From a virus: 56,796 nucleotides of DNA. The translations under genes were made by a program, and so were the position numbers. Each line of letters begins with the position of its first letter. The stretch's first letter is position 1. This document shows positions 2,531 to 32,535 of this stretch, one piece after another. The notes beneath the pieces are model-generated. The model worked only from the letters and a program-made list of their open reading frames with translations. It had not been told where the DNA came from and did no database searches. The stretch covers positions 64,001 through 120,796 of IMG/VR virus record IMGVR_UViG_3300042261_000652; one strand, given 5' to 3'.

Positions 2531-2603
2531 AATTTTACGATTTTCCACAAATAGTTATTTGTGTCGATAAATAATTGAAAAACGTAGAGTTGAGAAGAAA
2601 GTT

Positions 2604-6200: not shown

Positions 6201-6258
6201 GGGAAGGCAGGGAATCGGACAACACAATACGGAAGATCTGAACTGGTTAATACGCTAA
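3244..6258 (+). CDS. Terminase large subunit (T4 gp17-like), interrupted by an intein
   Basis: Walker A 'KSRQMGIST', Walker B 'LLIIDEAG', then insertion starting 'CVTKDT'; resumes with gp17-like 'IIGHQTPRGVGNWFHRMW' (T4: TTPNGLNHFY). The 1004-aa length exceeds a normal ~600-aa terminase by the intein size. Confidence 0.85.
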   Translation: MSNKPQLSYQELIKQEYTKCLESPVYFMKYYAKIQHPVRGTILFNLYKFQEETLQEFHDYKFNIILKSRQMGISTLVAVYSLWLMIFHKDKNILLISLKQDDAKEVIGKVRFANENLPTWLKVKCLEDNRLSLKFANGSQIKAASTTKKSGVGHALSLLIIDEAGLIDEADELWTSAQPTLSTGGSSIVLSCVTKDTMVITSKGIKEIGSFVDKSKIGGYEIDKYNVMGVDGIRCGNLFHNNGKQKTNILKTKFSSIECTDNHKVWAYKQSTKRYDWYESSQLEVGDFLSLQYGQKMWGNNDDISSFTPSISPKIHSPYHPKNISIEMAYLLGLYIAEGSVYKVVDKNDNFVGGILTITCGDNISWVFDKLNLTYSCLDGLHYTISNKNFIELMEYLGFDVSVKANQKYIPPRLMEMSGDNIKWLLRGIFDGDGCSTKKAVKLTSTSCKLIKQVRMLLHNFGILGSIVSETKDSLNSRNGKIKHNHDSHNLEICGRYMIDFFNRVGFGLERKQTLRPPIVKMNVGRACSKDVIPDSLELVKEIVQATGMTYTEINKRCNIQVNGYCSPTKYKSNNISRQNVITLYAMFYGLLSAETQIYWNNIIKSDVVWCEITSIEHSENETFDFSLPENSDDFWCHSIIYNGIIGHQTPRGVGNWFHRMWQSAEEDNGKKVGKNGFHPIKLPWNLHPERTEEWRRVEGEKIGSSKKAAQEFDCDFLASGDNVVELSIVEFYKKNIQKDPTDIRGADRGLWVWQYPDYTQTYLLSADTARGDGSDFSAAHVINATTLEQCAEYKGQLGTKDFGNLLVALGTEYNNALLIPERENVGWATIQAIIDRNYPNLFYMTKDLKYVDPDTQFSNNYYSEDKKAVPGFTTNIKTRPIIISQLELYFREKAIRIYSKRTIAELETFIWENGKAQAMKGYNDDLILSLGIGLWVRDTALRLRQEGIDITKASLNHLSMNKMDQTPFYKTQTAQRGREQWTMKTGRQGIGQHNTEDLNWLIR
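3817..5172 (+). mobile_element. Intein with LAGLIDADG homing-endonuclease domain inside the terminase ATPase domain (C-terminal junction approximate)
   Basis: Begins with Cys (tgc 3817) right after Walker B. Two LAGLIDADG-type motifs 'LLGLYIAEGSV' and 'LLRGIFDGDGC'; block F/G-like 'VVWCEITSIEHSENETFDF...FWCHSIIYN' ending in Asn. Exact C-terminal splice junction could not be fixed (next residue Gly). Confidence 0.55.
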
Positions 6259-6321
6259 TAACAGGTTTTTCAAAAATATTTATATGGATGATGTGTTATA
6301 TAACACAAATAAGAACAAAAT

Positions 6322-9300
6322 ATGCCAAACCAAACACAAATTAAGCCATTTGACGATCAGATTTTAGACGTTAAAAAGCAATCGCTGTATGCGAGATTGA
6401 AGAGATTATTCTCTACCGATGTTATTGTACGTAACGTAGGCGGCAAACAGCTTAAAATAAAAGATACCGATAATATTATGTACGCAACGGATAGAAATTC
6501 GTTGCGTGACAGATTTAATCGTATTCGCTCGACTGCATATAATGCATACACACGTGATTTTGCGATGTCATATCAAGCGGCACGGATGGATTTATTTCGT
6601 GACTATGATTGTGTGGGACCAGATACCATTATTCCATTACCGGATGGATCACGACCTACCATTGCAGAACTGGCCGAGAAATATAAAAATAATCCACAGG
6701 AAAGATTCTGGGTTTTTTCCTATGATCACGAAACCGATTCCATAAAACTTGGGAAAGCATATCATCCAAGGAAAAAGAAAGGCGTCCGCCAAGGTTATAA
6801 AATAACTTTTGATAATGGACAATCTATAATCGGAAGTTTGAAACATCCATTTTTAATGCGGGATGGAAGCAAAAAACGCCTTTTCGAATTGCGTGTTGGA
6901 GATTCTGTAATGCCTTTCTACGAAAAAGAATACGGATATAATAAACATGGATTTAAACGCTATCGTAGGTTATATAACTTTTCGAGAGGATGGCAGCAAG
7001 AGCATAAAATAGTCGCCGAGCAGTTTTATAGACCACTTGAAAAAAATGAAGTGATTCATCATAAAAACTTCAACGGGTCGGATAACACGCCCGAAAATCT
7101 TGAAATAATGGATTGGAAAGAGCATAAACGATTTCATTCCGACCACAACAAAAATGTATTATGGGGCGAGAAAAACTATAAAAATCAACTCCATAAGTTG
7201 AAGTCTCATCCAAATTATGTTAACCGGGCGGTTCATCATTGGAATGGAGAACGTGTCGGGTCGAGTAATCCATTTTATGGAAAACAACATACTATTGAAT
7301 CTAATGAGAAAAGATCAAAATCCTTAAAAGAAGCATTTATTAATAAAGATCAAACAGGAAAAAAGAATCCAAACTATAGAGATGATGTTACGTTTGATAA
7401 TGTAAAACAAAAAGCATTTGAATATTATAAAGAATATTCAAAAATAAACATATGGGATTTTATTAAACACATTCATTGCGATCATTCTACCCTTCAAAAT
7501 CGACTAAAAAAAGAAGGACATAACTGGAAATCTTTTAAACGAGAAGTTGAAAACACTTTAAATCATAAAATAATATCAATCGAGAGCGTTGGAGAGGTTG
7601 AGGTTTATGACGTTACAGTTGAAAAATATGAAAATTTTGCTACGGATAGTTGTATAGTCGGAAACACGATGGACATGGACCCCATAATGTGTTCAGCATT
7701 AGATATTTACGCAGATGAATGCTTGACCTACAATGAAGTAGGTAAAATGATAACAGTCCACTCGAATAATAATAACGTAAAACGAATTCTTGAGAATTTA
7801 TTCGATGAAATCTTAAATGTTAGATTTAATCTATGGTCGTGGGTGAGAAATATGTGTAAATATGGAGATTTCTATCTTAAATTATATATTACTCCCGAGT
7901 ATGGGATTTATATGGTAGAGCCAATTTCCGCATATAATGTTGAACGGATTGAGAATTCTGACCCCTCTAATAAGCGATATGTTAAATTTCAAATTCGTCC
8001 TACAGATACAACACAATCAGAGGTTCTCGAAAATTATGAAGTGGCGCATTTTCGTCTAATTAATGATAGTAATTTCTTGCCGTACGGTAAGAGTTTAATA
8101 GAAGGAGCTAGACGAGTTTGGAAGCAACTATCTCTGATGGAAGATGCTATGCTTATCCATCGCATTATGCGTGCTCCCGAAAAGCGAATTTTTTATACTG
8201 ATATTGGAAATATTCCGCCAAATGAAGTCGATGCTTATATGCAAAAAATGATGGATAAAATGAAGAAAATTCCATACATGGATGAGCAATCGGGCGATTA
8301 TAATTTGAGATTTAATCTTCAAAATATGGTGGAGGATTATTATATTCCAGTTCGTGGCGGTGACAGCGGAACAAAGATTGATACTCTTGGTGGTATGGAA
8401 TGGACTGGAACTGAAGATATAGAATATCTTCGCAATAAATTGATGTCTGCGCTCAAAATTCCCAAAGCATTTTTAGGATATGAAGAGGGAATTAGCGGAA
8501 AGGCGACCTTGGCATCGGAAGATGTTAGGTTTGCTCGCACAATTCAACGATTACAATGTATTATTGCATCGGAATTAGGCAAAATTGCCACCGTTCATTT
8601 ATATGCTCAGGGATATAGAGACGAGTCTCTTGTGGATTTTGAATTAGAATTAACCAATCCATCAACCATATTTGAGAAAGAAAAGGTTGAAATATGGTCT
8701 GATAAGGTTGCGGTTGCTACAGATATGGTGGAAAATAAGTTTTTCTCGTATAAGTGGGCTTATAAGAACATCTTCAATATGTCGGAGGATGATATCGAGA
8801 AAGTTAGAGAAGAAATCGTCGAGGATGCCAAACAAAGGTATAGATTCGCATCTATTGAAGAAGATGGGGATGATCCTGCCAAGCCGTTTAAGAAGATTGG
8901 GGGCAAAGGTGGCGATGACGAAGATGGCGACAAAGATATCGGAGATCTCGGCGGTGGTGGAGGTCTTGGGGGTGGAATGCATAGCAGTGGCGGTCTCGGA
9001 GGTTCAGACTTGGAAGATATGGATAAATTTGGAGAAGACGGCCCGGGTTTAGACGATTTGGCGGACATAGAGGGTGGCAATGAAGAAGGAGAAGGGGATG
9101 AAGACAAGGAAACGGAAGATGAAACGGGTCCAGAAAAGTCTAAAAATATAAAAGAATATGCAGATCCGGCCAAGGACCGAGATCAAAGTGGTGAACACGA
9201 TGCTCGTAGAGATCATCCTATGGCAGAAGATCCGCTCGGACAAGATGCCATGAATGCCAATACAAAGACAAATAGTGAACGTAAAAAGAAAAGTGCAATT

Positions 9301-9501
9301 GCCCATAATTATGAGGGGGGAAGTCCATTGAGCCGATTGCATGAACGAAATAAGCCCGTAGTTGATGGGGCTATGATCAAAAGTTTATCCGAATTTTTAA
9401 ATAAAACAGGAAAGAATATAAAAACGGAGCTTTTAAATGAAATTATAAGGGACAATCCGAATAATAAATCTATGATGGATGAGTCCAACATTTTAGAATA
9501 A
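6322..9501 (+). CDS. Portal protein (T4 gp20-like) with an intein and a long acidic/Gly-rich C-terminal extension
   Basis: Extein resumes with the gp20-like 'DPIMCSALDIYADE' motif; insertion begins 'CVGPDTIIPLPDG' (Hint block A); gene sits directly after the terminase. Confidence 0.8.
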   Translation: MPNQTQIKPFDDQILDVKKQSLYARLKRLFSTDVIVRNVGGKQLKIKDTDNIMYATDRNSLRDRFNRIRSTAYNAYTRDFAMSYQAARMDLFRDYDCVGPDTIIPLPDGSRPTIAELAEKYKNNPQERFWVFSYDHETDSIKLGKAYHPRKKKGVRQGYKITFDNGQSIIGSLKHPFLMRDGSKKRLFELRVGDSVMPFYEKEYGYNKHGFKRYRRLYNFSRGWQQEHKIVAEQFYRPLEKNEVIHHKNFNGSDNTPENLEIMDWKEHKRFHSDHNKNVLWGEKNYKNQLHKLKSHPNYVNRAVHHWNGERVGSSNPFYGKQHTIESNEKRSKSLKEAFINKDQTGKKNPNYRDDVTFDNVKQKAFEYYKEYSKINIWDFIKHIHCDHSTLQNRLKKEGHNWKSFKREVENTLNHKIISIESVGEVEVYDVTVEKYENFATDSCIVGNTMDMDPIMCSALDIYADECLTYNEVGKMITVHSNNNNVKRILENLFDEILNVRFNLWSWVRNMCKYGDFYLKLYITPEYGIYMVEPISAYNVERIENSDPSNKRYVKFQIRPTDTTQSEVLENYEVAHFRLINDSNFLPYGKSLIEGARRVWKQLSLMEDAMLIHRIMRAPEKRIFYTDIGNIPPNEVDAYMQKMMDKMKKIPYMDEQSGDYNLRFNLQNMVEDYYIPVRGGDSGTKIDTLGGMEWTGTEDIEYLRNKLMSALKIPKAFLGYEEGISGKATLASEDVRFARTIQRLQCIIASELGKIATVHLYAQGYRDESLVDFELELTNPSTIFEKEKVEIWSDKVAVATDMVENKFFSYKWAYKNIFNMSEDDIEKVREEIVEDAKQRYRFASIEEDGDDPAKPFKKIGGKGGDDEDGDKDIGDLGGGGGLGGGMHSSGGLGGSDLEDMDKFGEDGPGLDDLADIEGGNEEGEGDEDKETEDETGPEKSKNIKEYADPAKDRDQSGEHDARRDHPMAEDPLGQDAMNANTKTNSERKKKSAIAHNYEGGSPLSRLHERNKPVVDGAMIKSLSEFLNKTGKNIKTELLNEIIRDNPNNKSMMDESNILE
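6610..7665 (+). mobile_element. Intein in the portal gene carrying an HNH endonuclease domain
   Basis: Starts with Cys (tgt 6610) after 'FRDYD'. HNH-like 'HHKNFNGSDNTPENLEIMDWKEHKRFHSDHN'; block F/G 'VYDVTVEKYENFATDSCIVGN' followed by Thr; the flanks rejoin to a gp20-like sequence. Confidence 0.6.
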
Positions 9502-9582
9502 GTCTTACGTATATGAATATAAACTTAGTGTTTACTTCATTATTTATATATTTATAATCAATCGAATAGCAAAGCTAATATT

Positions 9583-9708
9583 ATGCAGAATGTGGAATAT
9601 AAACGTAAGTGTCCGGAATGTGGCTGTGATATAGTATACATTTCACTTGATTCTTTCCGACACGCCAAGTCAACGTCAAAATGTCGTTGGGGGGAATCTA
9701 GCCTATGA
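9583..9708 (+). CDS. Small Zn-ribbon ORF (41 aa; MQNVEYKRKCPECGCD...KCRWGESSL), below the ORF-track length cutoff
   Basis: ATG at 9583 preceded by an ATATTTATAA box; stop overlaps the next gene's ATG as ATGA; Cys spacing CxxCxC...C. Confidence 0.3.
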   Translation: MQNVEYKRKCPECGCDIVYISLDSFRHAKSTSKCRWGESSL

Positions 9709-10595
9709 CTCAACAGAAAAAAATGCGCCATTCTAAATTCAGAAATACCGGTATTCTGTTTGAATTGCTGACAAAGCAAGTCACCGCAGATATTATTGCC
9801 GGTAAAGATATATCCGCAGCAAAAAACCTATTACATAAATACTTTCGAGAAAACACCGAGCTGGGACGAGAGTGGCAATTATATAATGCGGTGTTGGCCG
9901 AAAAAATCAAAGATGAGGCTCACGCAGAACGGTTTTTTTCGGTTGTGTTAGAAGCTCGCAAGAAACTCAATAATCGCCAACTCTCTCTTCTCAAATATGA
10001 TTTAATTAAGGAAATTAAAGATTCATATCCAATAGATGAAATGTTAAAAGCCCCCGTGCGAAATTATAGAGTATTAGCCTCCATTTATAAAATCTTTGAA
10101 GATCTCGCATCTTCGGATTGTAAGTTCGACGTAAAAGAAATATATCGGGCAAAAACTTGCATAGTGGAGCATATAGTGGATAAGCCAAAGGCCGCACATT
10201 CTGAAGATGAGCTTATCAATTATTATAAAACTCAAAGCGAGGATATACGGCTTCTTACTTATAAATTGTTATGTGAAAAATTTAATGAAAAATATGAAAG
10301 TACCTTGGACGATGATCAAAAATCAGTATTGCGAGAGTATATCTGTAATGTTGCTAATACAAATAATTTTGATGCATTTGTAAAAAAGAAAGTATCTGAA
10401 ATTAAACAAGCATTGGTTGAGCATATTGATAAAATCAAAACATCCGATGTTATGAAGATAAAGATAAAAGAAGTCATCAACCAATTGGATAAAATCAATC
10501 CCGGTAAAATTGTTAAAGATAACCACGTTATGGTGCTTATGCTTTCATATGAATTATTGAATGAGATTAAACTACAATTGAAAGAATCAAAATGA
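9705..10595 (+). CDS. Hypothetical protein (296 aa)
   Basis: ORF in the operon between portal and protease; 4-nt overlap with the next gene. Confidence 0.5.
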   Translation: MTQQKKMRHSKFRNTGILFELLTKQVTADIIAGKDISAAKNLLHKYFRENTELGREWQLYNAVLAEKIKDEAHAERFFSVVLEARKKLNNRQLSLLKYDLIKEIKDSYPIDEMLKAPVRNYRVLASIYKIFEDLASSDCKFDVKEIYRAKTCIVEHIVDKPKAAHSEDELINYYKTQSEDIRLLTYKLLCEKFNEKYESTLDDDQKSVLREYICNVANTNNFDAFVKKKVSEIKQALVEHIDKIKTSDVMKIKIKEVINQLDKINPGKIVKDNHVMVLMLSYELLNEIKLQLKESK

Positions 10596-12151
10596 ATATA
10601 GATATTAAAGTTCTCACGAAAATATATTCTACATATGGAGTAAATGCCGTCAAGAACTATCCTCAAGTTGATGCAGTGCTTTCTAACTCGAAGCCATACG
10701 TTGATGTAGCTCCTGCTGAATGTCAATCGGTTCTTAAACGGGGCGGATATCAATTTATGACATCCAAGGGGTATTTTAAACCGTCATCGACTGATAGTGA
10801 TGATGGACAGGTGATTTATTATATAAAATCCAACAATTGGTTTATATGGGTATGGGAACATATGTTTCGCATTCTTACGGGGGAAAAACAACTTTCGAAA
10901 TGGATTCTTGGAAATGAGAAATATCCCAAAAGCAAAGCCGTCTCTTTTATGGAAACGTATAAAAAAATGGTGGGGATAGATACTGCTGCTTCTGCCAAAA
11001 ATAAACCGGAAATGCCATCGGATATGGATCGTGTAGCAGGAATTTTTGACTTGGATATTAAAGGTGGGGGCGAACGCATGGTTGATTATAAGCCTACAAT
11101 AGTAGATCCCACGGATGCGCTTATTGCTAAATTAACAAAGCAGGCTGGTTCAAAGAAGACTTTACCCGCCGATACGATAATTGATGTGGGACTGAAAGCT
11201 AAGAACGAAAAGAACACCAAACTTCTTCAGTTTCTCAGTACCATTAAGCCTTTAAATGAAAATTTTATAAAAAAGGATGATCTTCAGAAACTTATTCGTG
11301 GAATAATTAAAACTGTAATGGAAGGGGTTACGAAAAAGAATGATGAAAAACTTTGTGAGGATGGAGGAGCCGCAGTCGCAGGAGATGGCGGGATGTCTAC
11401 GACCTCAGATGTGTCTCCAGTAACAGGTCCAAATGCATTTAAGAGTAAAAAGTCAATTAATAAATCATCTCGGCCCGTTACGGAAAATGAGTTTGATGGT
11501 AAAGAGATGCCTAAACACAATGCGAAATGTACGCCCGAGGAAGAAGCGGAAGCTAATCGTATAGCTAAAGAAATATGGGGATGGCAGGTTGGACCCATGA
11601 GACTGCATTCTATTGATAGACTTGGAGGGAAACATTTTTGGAGTGATGAACATTCGGTATTAAAGAGCAGACACATTATTTGTAAGCAGCGGGATGGTGC
11701 GTGGATATATGTCAAGGGAGACGGCCTGCAAGCAATGTGGGTGAAATTTGAGAATGAACCATTGGCAGAAATAACAACAACCAATTCTGTGGCCGGGTAT
11801 AATATTCCTGGTGCATTTTCTCGTGCGGGGGGTAGTGCGAGGGGAGTGGAAAGTTCTGACAAGCTTGGCTATCAATTAACTAAAATTGGCAAAGAGGATA
11901 TGAAGTTAAAGGCCGACAAGCTTTGTGAAGATGTGGTAAAAAATCTTAACAATTTAAGAAGAGCGCAGTTAGCTCACGATGATGCTGTGCCGAGCGATGA
12001 TCCGGATGCGATAGAATGTCCCGATTGTGGTGGTGATATTGAAATAACTAGCCAAGGTCAAAGTCGAGGCTGCTGGTGGACACACGGAAAGTGTCCCGAA
12101 TGTGGATATAAATATCAGAATGATAATTTCGATCAGCAATATGATTTATGA
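10592..12151 (+). CDS. Hypothetical protein (519 aa) with C-terminal Zn-ribbon
   Basis: 'ECPDCGGD...GKCPECGYKY' at the C-terminus; translationally coupled to both neighbours. Confidence 0.5.
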   Translation: MNIDIKVLTKIYSTYGVNAVKNYPQVDAVLSNSKPYVDVAPAECQSVLKRGGYQFMTSKGYFKPSSTDSDDGQVIYYIKSNNWFIWVWEHMFRILTGEKQLSKWILGNEKYPKSKAVSFMETYKKMVGIDTAASAKNKPEMPSDMDRVAGIFDLDIKGGGERMVDYKPTIVDPTDALIAKLTKQAGSKKTLPADTIIDVGLKAKNEKNTKLLQFLSTIKPLNENFIKKDDLQKLIRGIIKTVMEGVTKKNDEKLCEDGGAAVAGDGGMSTTSDVSPVTGPNAFKSKKSINKSSRPVTENEFDGKEMPKHNAKCTPEEEAEANRIAKEIWGWQVGPMRLHSIDRLGGKHFWSDEHSVLKSRHIICKQRDGAWIYVKGDGLQAMWVKFENEPLAEITTTNSVAGYNIPGAFSRAGGSARGVESSDKLGYQLTKIGKEDMKLKADKLCEDVVKNLNNLRRAQLAHDDAVPSDDPDAIECPDCGGDIEITSQGQSRGCWWTHGKCPECGYKYQNDNFDQQYDL

Positions 12152-13015: not shown

Positions 13016-14749
13016 ATGAATAACGAAAATAAAAAACTTTTGATGGAATGTATTACATTCGAAGCCGATCCACGGCTGCTTAAAGAATCTAGCGATCATC
13101 CAAATCAGCCATTCCGAGTGAGTGGAATTTTACAACGCAAAGGTAAAAAAAACCAAAATGGCCGTATTTACCCCGATGAAATTCTAATGCGTGAAGCTGA
13201 AAAATATTCAAACGTTTTCATAAAAGATAGACGGGCGATGGGTGAATTAGATCATCCGGAATGTAAAAGAGTTGGAACTGAGATACTTACGAAAGATGGA
13301 TGGAAAGATTTGCGTGATGTTAAAATCGGAGATATAATTCCGACGTTAAATACCACAACAGATACGTTGGAATATAATCCAATCGAACGAGTGATCAACG
13401 AACCATATAATGGTAAAATGATATCTATCATTGGAAAAAATATAGATACATTGGTTACTCCAAACCACAGATTTATTTTAAAAGATAGAAATGGAAAATT
13501 TCTGGAAAAAACCGCACGAGAAATGTTGGATATATCGAAAATAAATAAGAATCCACATTTATCAATTCCAGTTGTAGTTAATAATTGGAATGGATTTGCA
13601 TATGATGTATATAAAATAGATGCCATTCCAACAGAAGAAATATTAAAACACGCATCTTTAGAATTTGGAATTAAACAAACCACGACATTAAATTTAGATG
13701 CATCTGCATGGTTTTCATTTTTAGGATTTTATTTGGCCGAAGGACATTGTGATAATAGAGAAACTCAAAGCGGCTATGGAGTATACATCTCTCAAAACAA
13801 AGGAGAACTCGCCGATAAATTCCGAGAAATTCTATCACAATTAAGTCCAGAATTACAGTGGCACGAAAATGATAAGGGAGAAAACGCCATCATTTTTACG
13901 ACATATGATGCTCGTTTATGGACATATTTATCTAAATTGGGAAATCAATATACAAAATATATTCCCGATGATATAAAATTGGCATCTGTAGATTTACTTC
14001 AAAATTTATATGACTGGTATTTGAATGGAGATGGAACAGTTGTAGGAGAATATGATAGATCTTCCATATGTTCCGTATCCAAACAGTTAATGGAAGACTT
14101 TTACGAAGTAATATTAAAATTGGGAATGACCGGAGTTATTAAAGAACAAGTATCAAAGGATGATTATATGTTCGCCGGAAGATTAATAGAAATTAAAAAT
14201 AAAGTTCCATTGTATAGATTGTGGATTAAAACTGCGAAAGAGGTTTATCTAGATTTTCGATTTATAAAAATTGAAGAAGTCGATTACAATGATACCGTTC
14301 ATTGTGTGACTGTAAAGAACGGAACGTTTTATTGCCGGGATAGAAATAAAGCATTCTGGACTGGAAACTCCTCGGTGGTTAATTTAAAAAATGTCTCCCA
14401 CAATGTTATAGAAATGCATTGGCAGGGAGATGACTTGGTGGGCACAGTAGAAGTTCTCACAACTCCAAATGGAAATATTTTGCGGGAATTATTCAGAAAC
14501 GGAATTAAGTTGGGCATTTCAAGTCGTGGACTTGGAAGTTTAAAGAAAATTTCAGAAAGTTCGGCCATTGTGGGCGATGACTTTGAACTTATTGCGTTTG
14601 ATTTCGTTTCAAATCCCAGCACACAGGGGGCTTTTATGGCACCCCAAGGGCAAGTGGCATTATCAGAAGGCATTATAAAAAATCCAATGACTAATAAATG
14701 GGAACGCACTGACGATATCATTAGAAATATTCTCTCAGAATTGGGTTAA
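13016..14749 (+). CDS. Prohead protease (T4 gp21-like) interrupted by an intein
   Basis: 'GELDHPE' then insertion; extein resumes 'SSVVNLKNVSHNVIEMHWQGDDLVGT...GISSRGLGSL', matching recalled gp21 'GELNHP...MWWKGNDVYG...SSRGLGS'. Extein length is ~208 aa against 212 aa for gp21. Confidence 0.75.
   Translation: MNNENKKLLMECITFEADPRLLKESSDHPNQPFRVSGILQRKGKKNQNGRIYPDEILMREAEKYSNVFIKDRRAMGELDHPECKRVGTEILTKDGWKDLRDVKIGDIIPTLNTTTDTLEYNPIERVINEPYNGKMISIIGKNIDTLVTPNHRFILKDRNGKFLEKTAREMLDISKINKNPHLSIPVVVNNWNGFAYDVYKIDAIPTEEILKHASLEFGIKQTTTLNLDASAWFSFLGFYLAEGHCDNRETQSGYGVYISQNKGELADKFREILSQLSPELQWHENDKGENAIIFTTYDARLWTYLSKLGNQYTKYIPDDIKLASVDLLQNLYDWYLNGDGTVVGEYDRSSICSVSKQLMEDFYEVILKLGMTGVIKEQVSKDDYMFAGRLIEIKNKVPLYRLWIKTAKEVYLDFRFIKIEEVDYNDTVHCVTVKNGTFYCRDRNKAFWTGNSSVVNLKNVSHNVIEMHWQGDDLVGTVEVLTTPNGNILRELFRNGIKLGISSRGLGSLKKISESSAIVGDDFELIAFDFVSNPSTQGAFMAPQGQVALSEGIIKNPMTNKWERTDDIIRNILSELG
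13262..14368 (+). mobile_element. Intein with LAGLIDADG endonuclease domain inside the prohead protease
   Basis: Starts with Cys (tgt 13262) after 'DHPE'. LAGLIDADG motifs 'FLGFYLAEGHC' and 'LYDWYLNGDGT'; block F/G 'VHCVTVKNGTFYCRD...AFWTGN' followed by Ser. Confidence 0.6.
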
Positions 14750-14802: not shown

Positions 14803-16491
14803 ATGAATGATGCAATCATCAAATGGATAGCGGATAATTTGCAATATTTTCGTGGATTAATTTGCAAAAAATGCAAGCGAGAATGGTTTGAAAAGTATGG
14901 ATTCTTAGATAAATGGCAAGAAATACACGATATTACGTTATTTCTCGATGCATTAAATCCAACATTTCCTCAGCGAGTATGGCATATTGTCCATGATCAT
15001 TTGTCGACAATAAAATGCGCCAATCCTTCCTGTCAAAACTCTCCAAAATTCTGGTCTTTTAATATTGGATATTTGAGAACTTGTTCTACATCTTGTGCTC
15101 AATATGACCCACTTACTCAAGAAAAAATACAAATCACCAATCTCGATAAATATGGTTATAAATATGGGTTGCAGAATCCGGATATAATTAAGCGAAGAAT
15201 ATCTTCCATTCGAGAAAAATATGGCGTAAATAATATTTCACAAGTCGATGGCATATCGGAAAAGAAACAAGAAACGTGTTTAAAAAATTATGGAACGAAA
15301 TGGTTTTTGGAAAGAAGTGATATTGTTAGAGAATGTTTGGTGAGAAAGTACGGAGTAGAAAATGTTCAACAAGTTGACGAAATATCATCAAAAACATCTC
15401 AAACCAGAACAAATAATTTTTATGATGAATTAGTCGGGTCGGACAGATTTAAAGGAAAAGTAGTTCCATCATTTTCCAAGGAAGAATATGATGGAGTGGG
15501 AAAAGAATATAAATTTAAATGTACGTCGTGCTTTTCTGAATTCTCCTATGTTTTACGGTGGGACCGCATTCCGAGATGCCCCATTTGTTTCAAAGGATCA
15601 TCCATATTTGAACAAGAAATTACAAATTATATCAAAACGCTATTGCCTGCGACTGATATAATGGAAAATGTGAAGTCGATCTTATCCAACAATAGAGAGT
15701 TGGATATTTATATTCCATCTAAAAATTTGGCGATTGAGTGCAATGGATTATTTTGGCACGGGGAAGTTGGAGGAAATAAAAATAGAAATTATCATTTAAA
15801 TAAGACAATTGAATGTGAATCTAAAAATATCCATTTAATTCATATTTTCGAAGATGAGTGGATTTTGTCTCCGGATATTATTAAAAACAGATTGGCCCAC
15901 ATAATGGGATTACACAAAGTTGCCAAATCCATATATGCCAGAAATTGTGAAATAAAAGAAGTATCAAATAAAGATAAAAATAATTTTCTTAATGCCAATC
16001 ATATTCAAGGAACCGATAGAAGTAAAATACGATTGGGATTATTTTATAATAATGATATGGTCGCAGTTATGACATTTGGAAGTAGGCGAATATTTACCAA
16101 TTCTGTCTATATTGAAAATGAGTATGAACTTATACGATATGCCACTTCTATTCCAGTTGTGGGCGGAGGAAGTAAGCTGATGACGCATTTTATAAAAACA
16201 TATTCGCCAAAGAAAATTATCTCGTATGCGGATAGGCGATGGACTTATTATAAAAATAATTTATATGAGCGGATTGGGTTTAAAAAAGTATCAGATGGAA
16301 CACCCAACTATTGGTATTTTGGTCGTCAAGGAAATTATCGTAGATTTCATCGATTTGGATTTGCAAAACATACTTTATCTAAGCGATTGGCCTTTTTTGA
16401 TCCGAGTCTCACGGAATGGGAGAATATGAAAAATAATGGATGGGACAGGATTTGGGATTGTGGAAGTTTAAAGTATGAAATGGCATTTTAA
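14803..16491 (+). CDS. Zn-finger protein with KYGVxNxxQVD tandem repeats and a Vsr/DUF559-like PD-(D/E)xK endonuclease domain; candidate free-standing homing endonuclease
   Basis: 'CKKCKREW', 'CANPSCQN...CSTSC'. Repeats 'REKYGVNNISQVDGISEKK / LKNYGTKWFLERSD / VRKYGVENVQQVDEISSK'. Nuclease core 'ELDIYIPSKNLAIECNGLFWHGE' matches the Vsr/DUF559 pattern (VDF...AIEvDG.FWHg). Confidence 0.6.
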   Translation: MNDAIIKWIADNLQYFRGLICKKCKREWFEKYGFLDKWQEIHDITLFLDALNPTFPQRVWHIVHDHLSTIKCANPSCQNSPKFWSFNIGYLRTCSTSCAQYDPLTQEKIQITNLDKYGYKYGLQNPDIIKRRISSIREKYGVNNISQVDGISEKKQETCLKNYGTKWFLERSDIVRECLVRKYGVENVQQVDEISSKTSQTRTNNFYDELVGSDRFKGKVVPSFSKEEYDGVGKEYKFKCTSCFSEFSYVLRWDRIPRCPICFKGSSIFEQEITNYIKTLLPATDIMENVKSILSNNRELDIYIPSKNLAIECNGLFWHGEVGGNKNRNYHLNKTIECESKNIHLIHIFEDEWILSPDIIKNRLAHIMGLHKVAKSIYARNCEIKEVSNKDKNNFLNANHIQGTDRSKIRLGLFYNNDMVAVMTFGSRRIFTNSVYIENEYELIRYATSIPVVGGGSKLMTHFIKTYSPKKIISYADRRWTYYKNNLYERIGFKKVSDGTPNYWYFGRQGNYRRFHRFGFAKHTLSKRLAFFDPSLTEWENMKNNGWDRIWDCGSLKYEMAF

Positions 16492-26246: not shown

Positions 26247-27758
26247 ATGGATAGTAATCTTTTGAAAGAAGCTATTGCCGATGCAAAAGCAGTGCGTCAA
26301 ACGGCGCTCGCAAATGCAAAGGTTGCGCTTGAAGAAGCGTTTACTGAACGCTATCAGGCAATGTTTGCTGAAAAGCTAAAGGAAGATGCGGAGCAAGAAG
26401 TTGCCGAACCGCATGAAGAAACCGCAGGAATGAATCCCGCAGGAGATAATGTGTCAGAACAGGAAATTGATGAGCTTATTAAAGAGCTGGAAGCGGAAGT
26501 AGGTCAAGAATCGCCCACCGATGCTGACGATGCGGCTTCTATGGGTGCTGTTCCTCCCGCAATGCCCGGTGCTGTTCCTCCCGCAATGCCCGGTGCTGTT
26601 CCTCCCGCAATGCCCGGTGCTGTTCCTCCCGCAATGCCCGGCGCTGCTCCTCAATCATGCCCACCAGGATGTTCTCCTATGGGCGGAGCGCCAATGCAAG
26701 GAATGCCTCCGATGCCCGGAGCACCAGCACCCGAAATGGGTGGCGAATTTTCGCAACCGTCTGTCCCGCAAATGGGTGGAGCAGTTTCCCCACAACCCGG
26801 TGCAGGTACTCCGCCTCCGTCTGAAGTTCCTCCTGCGGAGAATGAAGCCGATGAAGATGTGGATTTGAATGAGCTTTTGGAAAGTCTTAAGCAAGAAATT
26901 GAACAGGATAACGAAGAGGAAGAAGAAGAAGAAGGCACAACCTTGGATGAAAGCACAAAACTCGCTTCGTCTGGTATTGGTGGAAATAAAGCAGGCGGCT
27001 CGGCAAATAAGAAACCGACCTCGGCTGCAAGTTCTTCTTCTAAAGTAGAATCTGGCGGACGTGATCACGAAGGTCTTCCGAAATTGGATCAGCCAAAGAC
27101 TGTTGCCAAAGAAGCAACGGAAGCATCTCGTCCAAATCAGGCTAAGAATGCAACTAAGAGTAATTTATCCACTCCTAAGATGGGAGCTGGAAATGGATCT
27201 GGTGGACAGAGTGAAGATGGTATGCCATCACTCGATCAGCCAAAAGTCACGGCCAAAGAGCCAACCACCGCATCTCGTCCAAATCAGGCCAAGAATGCAA
27301 CTAAGAGTAATTTATCCACCCCGGGTGGAGCACTGGAGGAAAATGTAATTCTCCGTAAACAACTTAATGAAGCCGAAGAGGTTATTAAGTATGTTAAAGA
27401 CCAACTTAATGAGGTTAATTTATTGAATGCTAAACTGCTTTACACGAACAAGTTGTTTAAGGAATTCAATATGAACAAAGAGCAGAAAATGCGAGTTGTT
27501 GAAATGTTTGACCTCGTAAAAAATGTTCGTGAAGTAAAGTTGACTTACGCCAACATTGCAGAGTCGCTGAATTTCGGTGGCACTGATATCAAGCGAAAAA
27601 CGAAAAATTTCGCAGTGACTCAGTCAATCACTGAAGGTCTCGCATCGGGCGCAGTCGGATCAACCAAACCTTCAAGAGAAATTATCTCAGAAGGTAAAGT
27701 AAACCAAATGGCATCGAGATTCCAAAAACTCGCAGGAATCAATTTGCCAAAAAAGTAA
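26247..27758 (+). CDS. Scaffold/prohead-core-like protein (503 aa): N-terminal coiled coil, Pro/Ala repeat, acidic tract, C-terminal coiled coil
   Basis: Lies immediately upstream of the major capsid gene (gp22 position); multiple L-x-E motifs; 'GAVPPAMP' x4; good AAGGA ribosome-binding site. Confidence 0.55.
   Translation: MDSNLLKEAIADAKAVRQTALANAKVALEEAFTERYQAMFAEKLKEDAEQEVAEPHEETAGMNPAGDNVSEQEIDELIKELEAEVGQESPTDADDAASMGAVPPAMPGAVPPAMPGAVPPAMPGAVPPAMPGAAPQSCPPGCSPMGGAPMQGMPPMPGAPAPEMGGEFSQPSVPQMGGAVSPQPGAGTPPPSEVPPAENEADEDVDLNELLESLKQEIEQDNEEEEEEEGTTLDESTKLASSGIGGNKAGGSANKKPTSAASSSSKVESGGRDHEGLPKLDQPKTVAKEATEASRPNQAKNATKSNLSTPKMGAGNGSGGQSEDGMPSLDQPKVTAKEPTTASRPNQAKNATKSNLSTPGGALEENVILRKQLNEAEEVIKYVKDQLNEVNLLNAKLLYTNKLFKEFNMNKEQKMRVVEMFDLVKNVREVKLTYANIAESLNFGGTDIKRKTKNFAVTQSITEGLASGAVGSTKPSREIISEGKVNQMASRFQKLAGINLPKK
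26544..26639 (+). repeat. 4 x 24-bp perfect tandem repeat encoding GAVPPAMP
   Basis: ggtgctgttcctcccgcaatgccc repeated four times; a fifth degenerate copy follows. Confidence 0.8.
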
Positions 27759-27790: not shown

Positions 27791-29566
27791 ATGCAACAAG
27801 TAAAAGAACTATTAACTGATGCTTTGAACCCTCAAGCACGTCTCATGGCTGAGACTCGTGGACTTGTCTCCAAGTGGGATAGGACAGGATTGCTCGAAGG
27901 ATTGAAGAATGATATTGACAAGTCGAATATGTCGGTATTGCTTGAAAACCAAGCAAAACAACTGATTGAAGAATCATCCGTGACCGGAACTCAGGCTAAC
28001 TCTGAGCAATGGGCGGGTGTTGCTCTTCCATTGGTTCGCCGTGTGTTCGCCGAAATCGCTGCTAAGGAATTCGTATCCGTCCAGCCAATGAACCTTCCTG
28101 CGGGATTGGTGTTCTATCTGGACTTCAAATATGGATCAACCTCGGGCGTATTTAGTGCCGATTCATCTACTAACTACTCATCGCTGTTCGGTGGAATTAG
28201 CCAGAGTTTGAATCTTGGTGGAACTACCATCAGTGATCCAAATAACCAGTGGAAACTTGGTTCGACCAATTACCCTGCTGGTGGTCTCTATGGCCCCGGT
28301 CGCAATGCTTATACTGTAAATGATAATCTTTGTGCAACCCAGTCCGTCGCAGTTGGTACGGCATCCCTCGCCGATATTAATTTCGATACTGGCAACGCAA
28401 ATGACCCGATCAATAGCAGTATTTCCGCATCTCTCGCCGCAGGCACATTGTTCACCCTCACCACCGTTGGGTTAACAACAAACTGCAACACTCAGTTTGG
28501 ATCATATCCTGATCTCAACAACGTCCGTACGTTTATGCCCGTAACGACCCCTGCGTCGTCTTCGGCAGCATTCGTAACGTGGTTCCCGGGTTTCACCCGC
28601 TTTAGCGGAACTGAAGCCGTGTTCGTTGTGTCATCCTCAGCGGCTAATGCACAAACCTTGGCCAATGGCGCAAATCAGAGTGGTATTATCCACGTCAATT
28701 TGAGCGTCCAGCCGAAGGATACTGCTCGTGGTGACTTCGAAGATCGCCTCGGCAAGTCCACTACGGATACCGGTCTTAATAAAGATATCGGAATTCCCGA
28801 AGTTAACCTCGAGATGCGCTCCGAGCCTATCGTAGCCAAGACTCGTAAATTGAAATCAGTATGGACTCCAGAACTCGCTCAGGATCTCAACGCCTACCAC
28901 TCGGTTGACGCTGAAGCTGAGTTGACCGCTCTTCTGTCCGAATATGTGTCAATGGAAATCGATCTCGAAATCCTTGACATGCTTATCGTCAATGCCCCCA
29001 ACATCAACAAGGAGCGTTGGAGCGCACGCCTCAACCGTGAAATCCTCAAGACTGGTACCAACAGCTACCAAGTAGTGGATCAAGTAACGGCTGGCGCAGG
29101 TGGATATTACACCAAGTCAACTTGGTATCAGACTCTTGGTAACAAGATTCAGAAAGTATCCAATAAGATTCACCAATTGACCCTCCGTGGTGGTGCAAAC
29201 TTCATGGTGGTCGGTCCCGATGTGGCAACAATCCTGGAGTCAATCCCCGGATTCGTAGTCAACACCGACGGTGACTCCGCCAAATTCGCAATGGGCGTTT
29301 CTCGTGTTGGTAGCTTCGCAAGTCGCTTCCAAGTCTACAAGAACCCATATATGCAAGAGAATCTAATTCTCATGGGATTCCGTGGAAATAACTTCCTCGA
29401 AACTGGCGCAGTATATGCTCCATACATTCCACTTATCCAGACCCCATTAGTATATGATCCTGTCAATTTCACCCCAAGACGTGGTGTTATGACGAGGTAT
29501 GCTAAGAAGATAGTCAGACCCGAGTTTTATGGGCTGATCTACGTATCTGATACAAATCAGGTCTAA
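27791..29566 (+). CDS. Major capsid protein (T4 gp23-like)
   Basis: 'WAGVALPLVRRVFAEIAAKEFVSVQPMNLPAGLVFYLDFKYG' aligns with recalled gp23 'WQPVLMGMVRRAIPNLIAFDICGVQPMNSPTGQVFALRAVYG'; N-terminal propeptide with L-x-E sites (e.g. 'KQLIEE'); strong terminator downstream. Confidence 0.8.
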   Translation: MQQVKELLTDALNPQARLMAETRGLVSKWDRTGLLEGLKNDIDKSNMSVLLENQAKQLIEESSVTGTQANSEQWAGVALPLVRRVFAEIAAKEFVSVQPMNLPAGLVFYLDFKYGSTSGVFSADSSTNYSSLFGGISQSLNLGGTTISDPNNQWKLGSTNYPAGGLYGPGRNAYTVNDNLCATQSVAVGTASLADINFDTGNANDPINSSISASLAAGTLFTLTTVGLTTNCNTQFGSYPDLNNVRTFMPVTTPASSSAAFVTWFPGFTRFSGTEAVFVVSSSAANAQTLANGANQSGIIHVNLSVQPKDTARGDFEDRLGKSTTDTGLNKDIGIPEVNLEMRSEPIVAKTRKLKSVWTPELAQDLNAYHSVDAEAELTALLSEYVSMEIDLEILDMLIVNAPNINKERWSARLNREILKTGTNSYQVVDQVTAGAGGYYTKSTWYQTLGNKIQKVSNKIHQLTLRGGANFMVVGPDVATILESIPGFVVNTDGDSAKFAMGVSRVGSFASRFQVYKNPYMQENLILMGFRGNNFLETGAVYAPYIPLIQTPLVYDPVNFTPRRGVMTRYAKKIVRPEFYGLIYVSDTNQV

Positions 29567-29585
29567 TTAAATCATTGATTATCAA

Positions 29586-29613
29586 GGCGTTGGAGAAATC
29601 CAACGCCTTTTTT
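29586..29613 (+). terminator. Rho-independent terminator
   Basis: GGCGTTGGA-gaaa-TCCAACGCC stem-loop followed by TTTTTT, 20 nt after the capsid gene stop. Confidence 0.7.
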
Positions 29614-29712
29614 ATGTACATTTATAAAAAACAATCTCCAGTCTCCAAGAAGTTATGCCTCTTTCGAAAAAATTACTAGACATTTTAGAAGAGTTGGGAT
29701 ATATTTACGTGT

Positions 29713-31548
29713 ATGACGATAAATCAAAACGAAATAACCATAACTGAAGAAGAGTCTAAATGTTGCAAATTATGTAACAAGATATTTAATTCTGGAAGAT
29801 TAATGATTTGGCATGTCAAGAAAGAACATAAACTCGATTTTAAAAATTATATTTTACAAGTTTATTATGGCGGAATTAACCCAATATGTCAAAAAACTGG
29901 AAAAAATGTGACTTTTAAGGCACATAAACTCGGACCTTGGTTTAGTAATTATTCAAAAAACAATTTCCCACGTTCTCCCCATTCCGCAGAATCCAAAGAG
30001 AAAATTAGAATTGGATGTGAAAATGCCGCTCTTAAAAAATTTGGAGTAAAAAATGTATTTCAATCTGAGTGGTGCAAACTCAAGATTAAATCTACTATTA
30101 GAGAAAAATATGGAGTAGATAATCCAATGCAGGTGGATGATTTCAAAAAGAAAATGATAAATGCCTTTTTTGAAACTATAAAAAATAGACCAATTAAAGT
30201 TTATCCTTGTAAAAATATAGACCCTAATCGGCCATCAACACTAGAATTAGATTTTGCATCTAAGTTAACAAAGAATAATATTCACTTTATAACTCCATTT
30301 GTATATGATGGATATAGGTTTGATTTTTACATACCAGCTATAAATTCTATAATTGAGATAGACGGGGAAACATTTCACAAAAATAATTTGGAATCATTGA
30401 CTTTAATGACCATAAACGGAAGTAGAAATGATTACAATAAAAATATTATGATAGATGATTCGCTATATAATTTTTATAGAATTAGATATAACCCCGCCGA
30501 TTTTAATTTTGATGATATTATTTCATTAGAATCGATTATACATAACACAAAATATTATCCCAACTATGGAATTAAATACAAACAGAAAATTGTTAATAAA
30601 GAATATTTTGCGAGATATATAGCAAACAAAGGAAAGGATAAATTGCAAAAATATTCTCCATTGATTCTCAAATTCATTCGTACGTTTCAGCCAGAATTTC
30701 CATATCCCGATCTTGAGGAACAATTATTCGATGTTATTGGTAAATTACATAATACAAATATATCGAAAGTATATAATGATAATGCAAAAGAGTTTTCGAA
30801 TAATATATCAACGGCGGGCCACAATTATTTAAAACATCATTTCAAATCATATTGGAAGAGTAAATTTAAGGGAACATTATCCCCAGTCGAGGCATGGAAA
30901 GATGATAAAATAATGCAAGAAGTTATCGATTATCGAATTGGATGTAATAATAGCGGGGAAGTATTCGACTTTAGTTTACATCAATTAGTCAGAGGATTAT
31001 CAGCCCGAAGAATTGGGGTGTCATTTTTTAAACCGCTACTTGCGGCGGCAATATATAAGATCATATTGGGAAATATGCCCAATCCGGTTGTATTGGACCC
31101 TTGCTGTGGATTTGGGGGAAGATTATTGGGGTTTAAATCCATATATCCAAATGGGACATATGTTGGATGTGAGCCTAATGTAGAAACATACAATGAATTA
31201 TTACAACTAGTTAAAAATGCCGGATGGAACAATGTTGAAATACATAATTGTAAGTTCGAGAATTTCAATGATAAAAATCGGCATAAATTTGATTTAATAT
31301 TTACAAGTATTCCATATTTTGATATTGAAGAGTATAGTAATAATACAACATATCCTTCATTTGATGATTGGAAAAATACATTTATTTCTGCTATTGAAAA
31401 ACACGGAGGGACGGGCTGTTATATTAATGCTCCGTCGGAACTGTGTGAAAAATTAAAATGGGTAAACGTGGCATACACAATCAAATCAAATCGGAGTCAT
31501 TTTGATAAACGAGCCGGGACGAAAAAAGAATTGATTGTTAAGTTATAA
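29713..31548 (+). CDS. Multidomain protein: C2H2-like Zn finger, KYGVxN repeats, Vsr/DUF559-like nuclease core, C-terminal amino-DNA-methyltransferase domain
   Basis: 'CCKLCNKIFNSGRLMIWHVKKEHK'; 'LKKFGVKNVFQSEW...REKYGVDNPMQVDDFKKK'; 'YRFDFYIPAINSIIEIDGETFHKNN'; methyltransferase motif I 'VLDPCCGFGGR' and motif IV 'FTSIPYFD'. Confidence 0.6.
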   Translation: MTINQNEITITEEESKCCKLCNKIFNSGRLMIWHVKKEHKLDFKNYILQVYYGGINPICQKTGKNVTFKAHKLGPWFSNYSKNNFPRSPHSAESKEKIRIGCENAALKKFGVKNVFQSEWCKLKIKSTIREKYGVDNPMQVDDFKKKMINAFFETIKNRPIKVYPCKNIDPNRPSTLELDFASKLTKNNIHFITPFVYDGYRFDFYIPAINSIIEIDGETFHKNNLESLTLMTINGSRNDYNKNIMIDDSLYNFYRIRYNPADFNFDDIISLESIIHNTKYYPNYGIKYKQKIVNKEYFARYIANKGKDKLQKYSPLILKFIRTFQPEFPYPDLEEQLFDVIGKLHNTNISKVYNDNAKEFSNNISTAGHNYLKHHFKSYWKSKFKGTLSPVEAWKDDKIMQEVIDYRIGCNNSGEVFDFSLHQLVRGLSARRIGVSFFKPLLAAAIYKIILGNMPNPVVLDPCCGFGGRLLGFKSIYPNGTYVGCEPNVETYNELLQLVKNAGWNNVEIHNCKFENFNDKNRHKFDLIFTSIPYFDIEEYSNNTTYPSFDDWKNTFISAIEKHGGTGCYINAPSELCEKLKWVNVAYTIKSNRSHFDKRAGTKKELIVKL

Positions 31549-31613
31549 ATAGCTCCGCTCGTGAATGGGAAAATACTTGATTTCCAATTCGGAGTGTGCT
31601 ATTCTTGGGCGAT

Positions 31614-32159
31614 ATGAGAGAAATTAAATTTAGAGTTTGGTTTGATGAAAGTGGTATTCCGCCGCAGATGATTTATACTCATTTGGATGATTTTATTAGA
31701 AATGCGGACGGGTATGTGCTTGGTATTTTGGTACTGGATACGTACTTTAAGAAAGGAATGGAAATTTGTTATGATGTTGTAAATGGCAAGGAAAATTGGT
31801 TAAAAGAAGAACTTGGAGAAATGAGTGATGTCCGATATAATGCGAACAACTCTAAGTTAATGCAATACACAGGGCTTAAAGACAAGAACGGTAAAGAGAT
31901 TTATGAGGGGGATATATTAAAAGTTGCAAGATGGCATACGAAAGATATACAAACATCATTACATTCTATTAAAGTTGAATTGGTTGAAGACGAAGCTGAA
32001 ATAGGAAATGTTTTTTGGTCTGACATAAGTTGTCAATGGACGATTTCGTTTGATCACATCCGCTATGATGATCATAATGCTATGAGGGGTGGAATTTCTC
32101 ATAGATATGAGATCATTGGTAATATCTTCGAGCATCCAGAATTATTAACACGAATCTAA
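31614..32159 (+). CDS. YopX-family phage protein
   Basis: Start re-set to 'MREIKFRVW'; 'MQYTGLKDKNGKEIYEGDI' matches the recalled YopX signature. Confidence 0.55.
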   Translation: MREIKFRVWFDESGIPPQMIYTHLDDFIRNADGYVLGILVLDTYFKKGMEICYDVVNGKENWLKEELGEMSDVRYNANNSKLMQYTGLKDKNGKEIYEGDILKVARWHTKDIQTSLHSIKVELVEDEAEIGNVFWSDISCQWTISFDHIRYDDHNAMRGGISHRYEIIGNIFEHPELLTRI

Positions 32160-32325
32160 AATTAAGACCAACCTTTTGTCATGGCATCCTTATACTAAGG
32201 AGTGTGAATATGGGTGGTATCACAATAAAACATTATTAGGTGGTGGATTGTGGATGAATTTAAACATTCCGTTGCTTGGGGATTTTTCTTTGTGGAAGTA
32301 TTGTCCGTCGGTAATAAAATAAGTT

Positions 32326-32535
32326 ATGAAATTAAAACCACATTCTGTTTATAAAAAGAAAGATGCCGAGGAGTATTTAACAACTGATTTTTTAATTAAC
32401 AAGGAACTTATATGGACACATAAAGTTGAGAGGGGAAGTGCTCCTTGTGGATTCGTAAACGGTGGGGGCGGTGTAGTTCAAATTCCGGTGGCGGAATTCG
32501 AGAGAGATTATACATTTATAAGGAGTATTGAGTGA
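32326..32535 (+). CDS. Small hypothetical protein (69 aa)
   Basis: ORF with ATGA-type coupling to the next gene. Confidence 0.3.
   Translation: MKLKPHSVYKKKDAEEYLTTDFLINKELIWTHKVERGSAPCGFVNGGGGVVQIPVAEFERDYTFIRSIE

Follow-up and report, generated by a model that had tools for sequence, protein, structure and literature searches.

Homing endonucleases have nuclease folds in common with restriction enzymes, and an evolutionary connection between the two has long been proposed. On the restriction side, MmeI, BpuSI and Eco57I represent the Type IIG/IIC single-chain restriction-modification enzymes. On the homing side, the EDxHD homing endonuclease family reportedly goes back to Dassa et al. in 2009 and Taylor et al. 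in 2011. The composite catalytic motif of I-Bth0305I, the founding EDxHD homing endonuclease, comprises E170, D196, N208, H213 and D222 (PMC3239194). In phage T4, segD, which is a freestanding homing endonuclease gene of the GIY-YIG type, separates genes 23 and 24 (PMC2988022), and in the MADS system Mad2 is required for N6-methyladenine (m6A) at TCAGNNNNTCC, which marks self (bioRxiv 10.1101/2023.03.30.534895). The present study concerns an open reading frame (ORF) in the window, that is, the whole 56,796-nucleotide (nt) stretch of viral DNA analysed (IMG/VR record IMGVR_UViG_3300042261_000652, positions 64,001 to 120,796 of that record), whose product joins a Vsr-like nuclease to a methyltransferase module in a single chain. 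The favoured reading, to which a probability of roughly 0.4 is assigned, is that this fusion ORF is a freestanding Vsr-like (EDxHD) homing endonuclease gene with a complete DNA amino-methyltransferase fused C-terminally, and that the methyltransferase marks the carrier's own DNA.

Domain architecture of the fusion protein

The fusion ORF occupies exactly the coordinates given in the original prediction, which had described it as a Vsr-like nuclease core with a C-terminal amino-DNA-methyltransferase, and it starts 146 nt past the stop codon of the gp23-type major capsid gene. The gene is AT-rich, with a GC content of 0.28 at positions 30001-31000, inside the gene, versus ~0.38 for the window. 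Its features are as follows.

29713..31548, + strand: fusion ORF, homing endonuclease plus methyltransferase, 611 amino acids (homologues, conservation)
29764..29829, + strand: C2H2 zinc finger, residues 18-39 (C18, C21, H34, H39; conservation, weak Pfam zf-C2H2 matches)
29986..30186, + strand: DUF7487 helical repeats, residues ~92-158, K[FY]GVxNxxQ (Pfam DUF7487)
30238..30552, + strand: Vsr-like/EDxHD nuclease, residues 176-280 (E178, D204, E215, D217, H222, D240; profile, Foldseek, conservation)
30586..31068, + strand: N-terminal helical subdomain of the methyltransferase module, residues ~292-452 (hhalign, conservation)
31081..31542, + strand: Rossmann-fold methyltransferase core, residues ~457-610, strands beta1-beta7 (model)
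31090..31134, + strand: motif I, VLDPCCGFGGRLLGF, residues 460-474, with DPCCGFGGR (conservation)
31294..31323, + strand: motif IV, LIFTSIPYFD, residues 528-537 (conservation)

A word-index search returned at least 285 homologues, most of them full length at 570-830 amino acids; one is an identical protein on a 120.8-kb JGI contig, and all but one are unnamed or labelled 'hypothetical protein'. When 114 homologues, each sharing 38-67% identity with the window protein, were aligned, D204, E215 and H222 of the nuclease are invariant, as are D462, G466, F467, G468 and R470 of motif I, E487 of motif II, and F530, T531, S532 and P534 of motif IV, while C18, E178, D217, D240, I533 and Y535 are conserved in at least 90%. 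Such invariance implies that the motifs are under selection and are not chance matches, and a chance ORF or chance motif was ruled out by the number of homologues that carry them.

The zinc-finger N terminus that had been proposed for the protein is a C2H2 element, with C21, H34 and H39 conserved in at least 70% of 120 homologues and a beta-beta-alpha element at this position in the AlphaFold model. The DUF7487 match (E 3.6e-8) lies above the curated Pfam cut-off; the region forms three helices in the model and is followed by a flexible linker at residues 159-175. Zinc finger and repeats together presumably constitute a DNA-binding module, placed N-terminal to the nuclease as in EDxHD homing endonucleases, and DNA binding is predicted for it. 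Relatives of the fusion protein bear NUMOD3 or ROS/MucR fingers as N-terminal modules instead, and the PHROGs matches of the window protein are to 'homing endonuclease' families.

The Vsr-like core was supported by both sequence profiles and structure. The family profile matches I-Bth0305I (PDB 3r3p) with E 0.0024, and the AlphaFold model of residues 1-290 (predicted local distance difference test, pLDDT, 90.9) retrieved Vsr (1cw0, 1vsr) and 3r3p in Foldseek with probabilities of 0.97-0.99 and weak E values of ~0.02. The domain has the Vsr-like PD-(D/E)xK fold, and a remote homologue in LR756508.1 reaches the Pfam Vsr cut-off. Residues E170, D196, N208, H213 and D222 of I-Bth0305I align with E178, D204, D217 (with E215), H222 and D240 of the window protein.

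In the C-terminal part, motif I is followed by motif IV after a gap of 54 residues (end to start). Both are present as originally predicted and are invariant or nearly so in the 114 homologues, and alignment, model and fold agree on an amino-methyltransferase with motif I before motif IV. The motif I pattern DPC[CAST]GFGGR occurs in 111 of 120 family members. The catalytic tetrapeptide of the window protein is S-I-P-Y, in which Ile replaces the first Pro of (D/N/S)-P-P-(Y/F/W). By its position SIPY is a genuine, putatively catalytic motif IV, as it aligns with the SPPY of standalone relatives that reach the Pfam N6_N4_Mtase threshold. Among 120 fusion proteins, 100 have SIPY and 4 have SPPY, whereas SPPY is the form in 95 of 120 standalone relatives; S, P and Y are invariant across both families. 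One such relative, a 330-residue protein of Vibrio phage 2.058.O, is 34% identical to the module, with DLCFTSPPYFDCEVYS opposite DLIFTSIPYFDIEEYS of the window protein and TSPPYFD versus TSIPYFD at motif IV; it reaches the Pfam N6_N4_Mtase cut-off (26.9 vs 26.7 bits), its motif IV region lying on model positions 1-65. The family around it comprises at least 1443 clusters of ~330-residue standalone proteins, and hhalign aligned window residues 292-609 with residues 3-326 of this family (probability 99.95%, E 8e-38). Because this match runs end to end, the C-terminal 320 residues correspond to a whole methyltransferase protein and not to a fragment.

The helical subdomain at the start of the module contains the motif X-like SFFKPLLAAAIY, matches residues 3-150 of the standalone family (hhalign 99.95%) and has L373, K374, S379, W381, R408, G410, G428, S437 and F439 as invariant residues; it is presumed to be the target-recognition part. 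The full-length AlphaFold model (pLDDT 92.1) shows a complete seven-stranded Rossmann fold of class I at residues 459-610, with the S-adenosylmethionine (SAM)-binding motif I and the acidic motif II residue, and the protein terminates one residue past strand beta7 (603-610 of 611). The PADLOC model mad2, from a library without curated cut-offs, matches the window protein at residues 412-546 (E 1.7e-13), and standalone relatives match Type II methyltransferase models among the defence-system models. Sequence comparison of the module with solved structures gave no match (best E 0.012). Its best fold matches are RNA m2G (N2-methylguanosine) and m6A enzymes, and the fold therefore does not decide the substrate. 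That DNA is the substrate is well supported but indirectly so, by the Mad2 and Type II methyltransferase models, the genomic contexts and the fusions to DNA nucleases.

Sporadic presence at the 3' flank of the capsid gene

The fusion gene occupies the 3' flank of the capsid gene, within the phage head module, and is followed by a YopX-like gene. The features of this flank are:

27791..29566, + strand: major capsid protein gene of the gp23 type (phrog_138 major head protein, E 8e-66)
29584..29609, + strand: intrinsic-terminator-like hairpin and T-run past the capsid gene (11-bp stem with 6 GC pairs, then TTTTAT)
29677..29705, + strand: sigma-70-like promoter candidate for the fusion gene (TAGACA, 17-nt spacer, TATATT; 10/12 consensus)

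Capsid-gene homologues in related loci match Pfam Gp23. An equivalent terminator-like hairpin occurs in every relative, whether or not it carries the element, and similar TTGAC..TATA elements were seen by eye upstream of homologues in three related loci (L018, L050 and L015); a promoter role for 29677..29705 is proposed as a candidate assignment from its consensus match. At the other end, TATAAATA, which reads as a T4 late-promoter consensus at 31544..31551 (+), overlaps the stop codon of the fusion gene. Since it lies upstream of the YopX-like gene (31596..32159), the element may supply a promoter to its downstream neighbour.

The fusion gene is present in 15 of the 78 distinct capsid-gene relatives that have 3 kb or more of sequence downstream, a sporadic distribution of the kind expected of homing endonucleases, and in the complete cases the gene starts 59-245 nt past the capsid stop codon. 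The two closest capsid relatives (84% identity), L006 and L007, lack it; at the same site they carry a gene for a 255-residue GIY-YIG and NUMOD3 homing endonuclease instead (7867..8634 in L006). In L013 the capsid gene is directly followed by the ATP-grasp gene, which in the window is located 3 kb further downstream. The nuclease half is exchanged among close relatives: in phages whose capsid proteins are 80-86% identical to that of the window, nuclease halves are 25-72% and methyltransferase halves 54-67% identical. Decayed variants occur as well, P0030 lacking residues 116-263 (nuclease) and P0103 the methyltransferase. Capsid relatives in IMG/VR and JGI metagenomes reach 84% identity at best, and no near-isogenic pair with and without the element was found there. 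An intein or intron origin of the fusion gene was ruled out, the ORF being continuous and intergenic.

Recurrent fusions and their position

A search of 1.84 billion representatives with the methyltransferase profile yielded 1392 proteins at E <=1e-30 and 10,124 at E <=1e-10. The best 150 matches include 74 Vsr-methyltransferase fusions and 58 standalone proteins, and the module was also found joined to other nucleases:

P0337, P0348, P0373 and P0350: helix-turn-helix (HTH) and LAGLIDADG fused to the methyltransferase module
P0331: HNH fused to the methyltransferase module
P0287 and P0296: GIY-YIG with NUMOD1/3 fused to the methyltransferase module
P0330: Endonuclease VII fused to the methyltransferase module

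In a neighbour-joining tree, which is rough and has no bootstrap support values, the GIY-YIG fusions fall within the Vsr clade, and those with LAGLIDADG, HNH and Endonuclease VII branch at various places between standalone proteins, which suggests several independent fusion events. The fusion family is large and confined to uncultured phages, the fusion having apparently arisen repeatedly with different nucleases.

Most of the fusions looked up share a position. Seven of eight further Vsr-fusion members that were looked up (38-67% identical, with three kinds of N terminus) lie directly past Gp23, as the window copy does; the exception is P0104. A remote copy in the 484-kb phage LR756508.1 is two genes past Gp23, and the GIY-YIG fusion P0287 starts 88 nt past a Gp23 gene that is 26% identical to that of the window. 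The LAGLIDADG fusion P0337 lies past a 292-residue phrog_2522 major head protein, with a second LAGLIDADG-methyltransferase gene in between, and a separate look-up placed the Endonuclease VII fusion P0330 past the end of a phrog_4523 head-protease protein. For the HNH fusion P0331, the search for related loci gave one remote locus only. Of 81 IMG/VR loci fetched by the methyltransferase profile alone, and thus not selected for capsid genes, 11 carry fusions, and 10 of these are directly past a capsid gene of one of two unrelated families: 5/5 Vsr fusions past gp23, and 5/5 LAGLIDADG or unclassified fusions 77-198 nt past a phrog_2522-type capsid gene. The remaining fusion, L255, has no detectable capsid gene upstream, and 0/70 standalone copies directly follow a capsid gene of either type; the local search was limited to these two families, which makes the control partial. 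The 11 sampled fusions represent about three or four independent lineages, not eleven. Since these capsid families have no relationship to one another, the rule cannot stem from recognition of a single DNA sequence and may instead reflect a general preference of homing endonuclease genes for the flank of the most conserved late gene.

Some of these loci show further peculiarities. In L183, tandem HTH-LAGLIDADG-methyltransferase genes (2521..5001 and 5001..7355; 826 amino acids with CPPY, and 784 amino acids) follow the 292-residue phrog_2522 head protein, and in L205 the ORF for the homologous phrog_2522-type capsid protein seems to be divided and is preceded by an ORF that contains LAGLIDADG. 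The standalone member P0181 (L177, 3394..7975; contigs of 250-420 kb) is grouped with a HATPase_c_3 protein, a second N6_N4 methyltransferase and an HNH nuclease, with DpdF-like and Type IV-like PADLOC matches; this looks like an undescribed restriction-modification-like defence cluster.

Proposed self-marking and its alternatives

Under the favoured reading, transcription of the gene would start at a sigma-70-like promoter of its own, past the terminator of the capsid gene. The protein would bind DNA through its zinc finger and DUF7487 repeats, its nuclease would cut the capsid-gene 3' flank of co-infecting element-free relatives, and recombinational repair would copy the fusion gene into the cut flank. 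The methyltransferase, using SAM, would methylate an exocyclic amino group (N6-adenine or N4-cytosine) in the DNA of the carrier phage. Packaged with this DNA, the methyl mark would allow the carrier to be told apart from naive genomes at the next infection, and would shield it from the element's own nuclease and possibly from host restriction. The domain organisation, the conservation of the two active sites, the sporadic occurrence at one site, the exchange of the nuclease half and the recurrence of the fusion are shown directly; we infer DNA cleavage and DNA methylation and, with the greatest reserve, a role of the fusion protein in self-immunity. Self-marking is favoured in that it would explain why both activities reside in one polypeptide across many apparently separate fusions; a role of the methyltransferase as plain anti-restriction cargo is ranked almost as likely.

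Several points weigh against the favoured reading. Homing endonucleases normally avoid self-cleavage by target-sequence differences, and a methyltransferase is not required for this. Whereas the nuclease and DNA-binding halves are exchanged, the presumed recognition subdomain of the methyltransferase is strongly conserved, which is awkward if both halves share one site. Motif IV has Ile in place of the first Pro, and the Pfam matches of the window protein to methyltransferases are generic and below the curated threshold, with none to PF01555; the expected hits to methyltransferase profiles were obtained with PADLOC mad2 and with hhalign to the standalone family, and failed at the Pfam thresholds, although relatives of the window protein do reach PF01555. 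Capsid and fusion-protein divergence are weakly correlated (Spearman 0.38-0.44), so that vertical inheritance followed by loss may account for part of the distribution. A look for co-conversion in the capsid gene found the same conservation of its 3' part irrespective of the element, the 3' 450 nt having the highest sliding nucleotide identity (80-89%) in every comparison. No member of the fusion family was found in cultured phages, full-length matches being confined to uncultured phage records, and megablast of positions 26000-34000 against cultured phages gave no match. Finally, cleavage and methylation are predicted activities for every member of the family.

A possible, somewhat weaker explanation is that an ordinary homing endonuclease, immune by target-sequence differences, carries the methyltransferase as a beneficial passenger against host restriction and that the fusion keeps drive and cargo together. 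Standalone members of the methyltransferase family are numerous (the at least 1443 clusters and the 1392 representatives given above), they are never capsid-adjacent in the sample, and in the one cultured phage examined, the Vibrio phage, the standalone copy is set among replication and nucleotide-metabolism genes (dCMP (deoxycytidine monophosphate) deaminase, dihydrofolate reductase (DHFR) and thymidylate synthase). Its better conservation relative to the nuclease half (54-67% vs 25-72%) is expected for a selected function, and nuclease types are exchanged around a constant methyltransferase. Gene adjacency would, however, suffice for co-mobility, yet a single polypeptide is found, in apparently several events and with five nuclease families, and the catalytic residues of the nuclease stay invariant across 114 sequences.

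It is unlikely that the protein is a weapon of Type IIG kind, whose methyltransferase module would read a short sequence and position the nuclease, so that unmethylated host or competitor DNA would be cut at many sites and no homing would occur. Type IIG enzymes do have this arrangement, a PD-(D/E)xK-type nuclease preceding a methyltransferase within a single chain, and methyltransferase relatives lie beside an HNH nuclease in the restriction-modification-like cluster and match the MADS methyltransferase model. The window protein, however, ends at beta7 without a C-terminal recognition domain and matches no Type IIG model, and membership in Type IIG was ruled out on these two grounds. Its N-terminal modules and those of its relatives (zinc finger, NUMOD3, ROS/MucR) are typical of homing endonucleases, and a fixed insertion site with sporadic distribution is what homing predicts. 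Of the original description, the architecture was correct and the homing endonuclease part is supported by sporadic presence at one fixed site, and self-protection or a single-chain restriction-modification mechanism is a conjecture.

Slightly less probable still is that the position reflects a role of the methyltransferase linked to the capsid, either in DNA methylation at packaging or by acting on the capsid gene, transcript or protein. Fusions with four nuclease types do lie past three unrelated capsid families (gp23, phrog_2522 and phrog_4523), and enzymes with (N/D/S)PPY include protein-glutamine methyltransferases such as HemK, which was seen among the fold matches. Yet the absence of capsid adjacency in the 70 standalone relatives, the location of the fusion gene behind a strong terminator with its own early-type promoter candidate, and model matches that point to DNA methyltransferases argue otherwise. 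The capsid 3' flank is, in addition, home to methyltransferase-free homing endonuclease genes, namely that of L006 and T4 segD (PMC2988022).

A domesticated or inactive remnant, one or both domains having lost catalysis and the protein acting as a DNA-binding regulator, would fit the deviation of motif IV from the PP consensus, the scores of the window protein below all Pfam methyltransferase cut-offs and the double role of some homing endonucleases as repressors (PMC2988022), but is very improbable given that the catalytic residues of the two domains are all invariant or almost invariant in the 114 sequences, 38-67% identical to the window protein, and that S, P and Y of motif IV are invariant in fusion and standalone families alike.

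No description of a homing endonuclease-methyltransferase fusion was found in the open-access literature, the scope of the search excluding subscription journals and REBASE. A broader and rather doubtful proposal is that the fusions form a distinct class of phage-borne, single-chain 'mobile restriction-modification' elements, apparently of several origins on the rough tree and with at least five nuclease families, for which a mark on virion DNA would mean self and unmarked co-infecting genomes would be cut beside the capsid gene, driving the element or excluding competitors. If these readings are true, a homing endonuclease with its own methyltransferase would be a concrete intermediate and a living link to restriction-modification systems, and a freestanding homing endonuclease would spare its own genome by an epigenetic mark rather than a sequence difference. 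On the broader proposal, the strict placement past capsid genes of unrelated families would reflect a rule, and compact enzymes that both cut and mark a site could serve as reagents.

Mobile elements in and around the head module

Mobile elements are densely packed in the head module of the window phage. Just past the prohead protease gene lies another freestanding Vsr-like homing endonuclease gene (14803..16491, +, 562 amino acids); its product matches phrog_3339 'homing endonuclease' (E 8e-119), DUF7487 (E 5e-14) and, weakly, the MTES_1575 nuclease, and has the KYGVxN repeats and the nuclease motif in common with the fusion protein, without a methyltransferase. Three inteins are present in total. 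The large terminase (3244..6258, +, 1004 amino acids) contains an intein with a LAGLIDADG_3 endonuclease (Terminase_6N at residues 64-189, Intein_splicing at 235-632, C-terminal terminase part from 672); the T4-type portal (6322..9501, +, 1059 amino acids) contains one with HNH (Intein_splicing at residues 104-448, HNH_3 at 228-269, Portal_T4 from 449); and the prohead protease (Peptidase_S77; 13016..14749, +, 577 amino acids) contains one with LAGLIDADG_3 (Intein_splicing at residues 109-435). Upstream of the capsid gene, a scaffold-like protein (26247..27758, +) has a long low-complexity stretch with acidic runs and four PPAMPGAV repeats, the fifth being degenerate, and no PHROG match.

Related loci show similar features. 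In L001, the gene past the fusion gene (7807..10719) encodes a 970-residue NUDIX/thymidylate kinase protein with an intein (Intein_splicing, weak Hom_end_hint), and a further DUF7487 homing-endonuclease-like gene (557 amino acids) lies on the opposite strand upstream of the scaffold gene. In L002-L004, which carry the 662-residue homologue P0050, a Mom-family (PF25680) DNA-modification gene is found close downstream (~8100-9200) on the opposite strand.

Comparison with known systems

Like Type IIG/IIC enzymes, the fusion protein places an N-terminal PD-(D/E)xK-type nuclease ahead of an amino-methyltransferase whose motif I precedes motif IV, and it shares with them the conceptual pairing of cutting and protecting. 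It differs in that it lacks the C-terminal target-recognition domain and is ~300-400 amino acids shorter, and in being phage-encoded, at a homing-type locus and with the DNA-binding modules of homing endonucleases; PADLOC gives mad2 only for the window protein, and no PDB sequence matches were obtained. The beta-class N6/N4 DNA methyltransferases (PF01555; M.PvuII, M.RsrI) are similar in that relatives reach the PF01555 cut-off with their motif IV region, FTSxPYFD, placed on the start of the model, and by eye the motif X, I and II strings of the module (FKP..A..IY, DPxxGxGGR, YxGxEP) resemble the C-terminal part of that family; the module order is circularly permuted, being X-I-II-III-IV-V... 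instead of IV...X-I. The model that matches the window protein best is Mad2 of MADS (Maestri et al., bioRxiv 10.1101/2023.03.30.534895), over the core motifs only (model positions 248-371 of 492). Mad2 pairs with a separate specificity subunit, unlike the single-chain fusion protein, and no mad operon is present at the fusion gene, which sits between the capsid and YopX-like genes.

T4 segD occupies the same niche, directly downstream of the major capsid gene in a T4-like phage (PMC2988022); it belongs to another nuclease family, has no methyltransferase, lies on the opposite strand and is uncharacterised. Also close are the EDxHD or Vsr-like homing endonucleases (I-Bth0305I, 3r3p; phage Hef). 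Among these, no member with a methyltransferase was found described in the open-access literature, whereas the fusion protein has one; the words 'methyltransferase' and 'methylase' are absent from PMC2677866. The DNA-binding part also differs, a C2H2 finger and DUF7487 repeats standing in place of the NUMOD2/HTH of EDxHD enzymes, and the fusion gene is freestanding rather than housed within an intron or intein. The fold and the full E-D-x-H-D set are nonetheless the same, the proteins are likewise bipartite, with an N-terminal modular DNA-binding region and the catalytic domain on its C-terminal side, and the genes of both are phage-borne with a sporadic, site-specific distribution.

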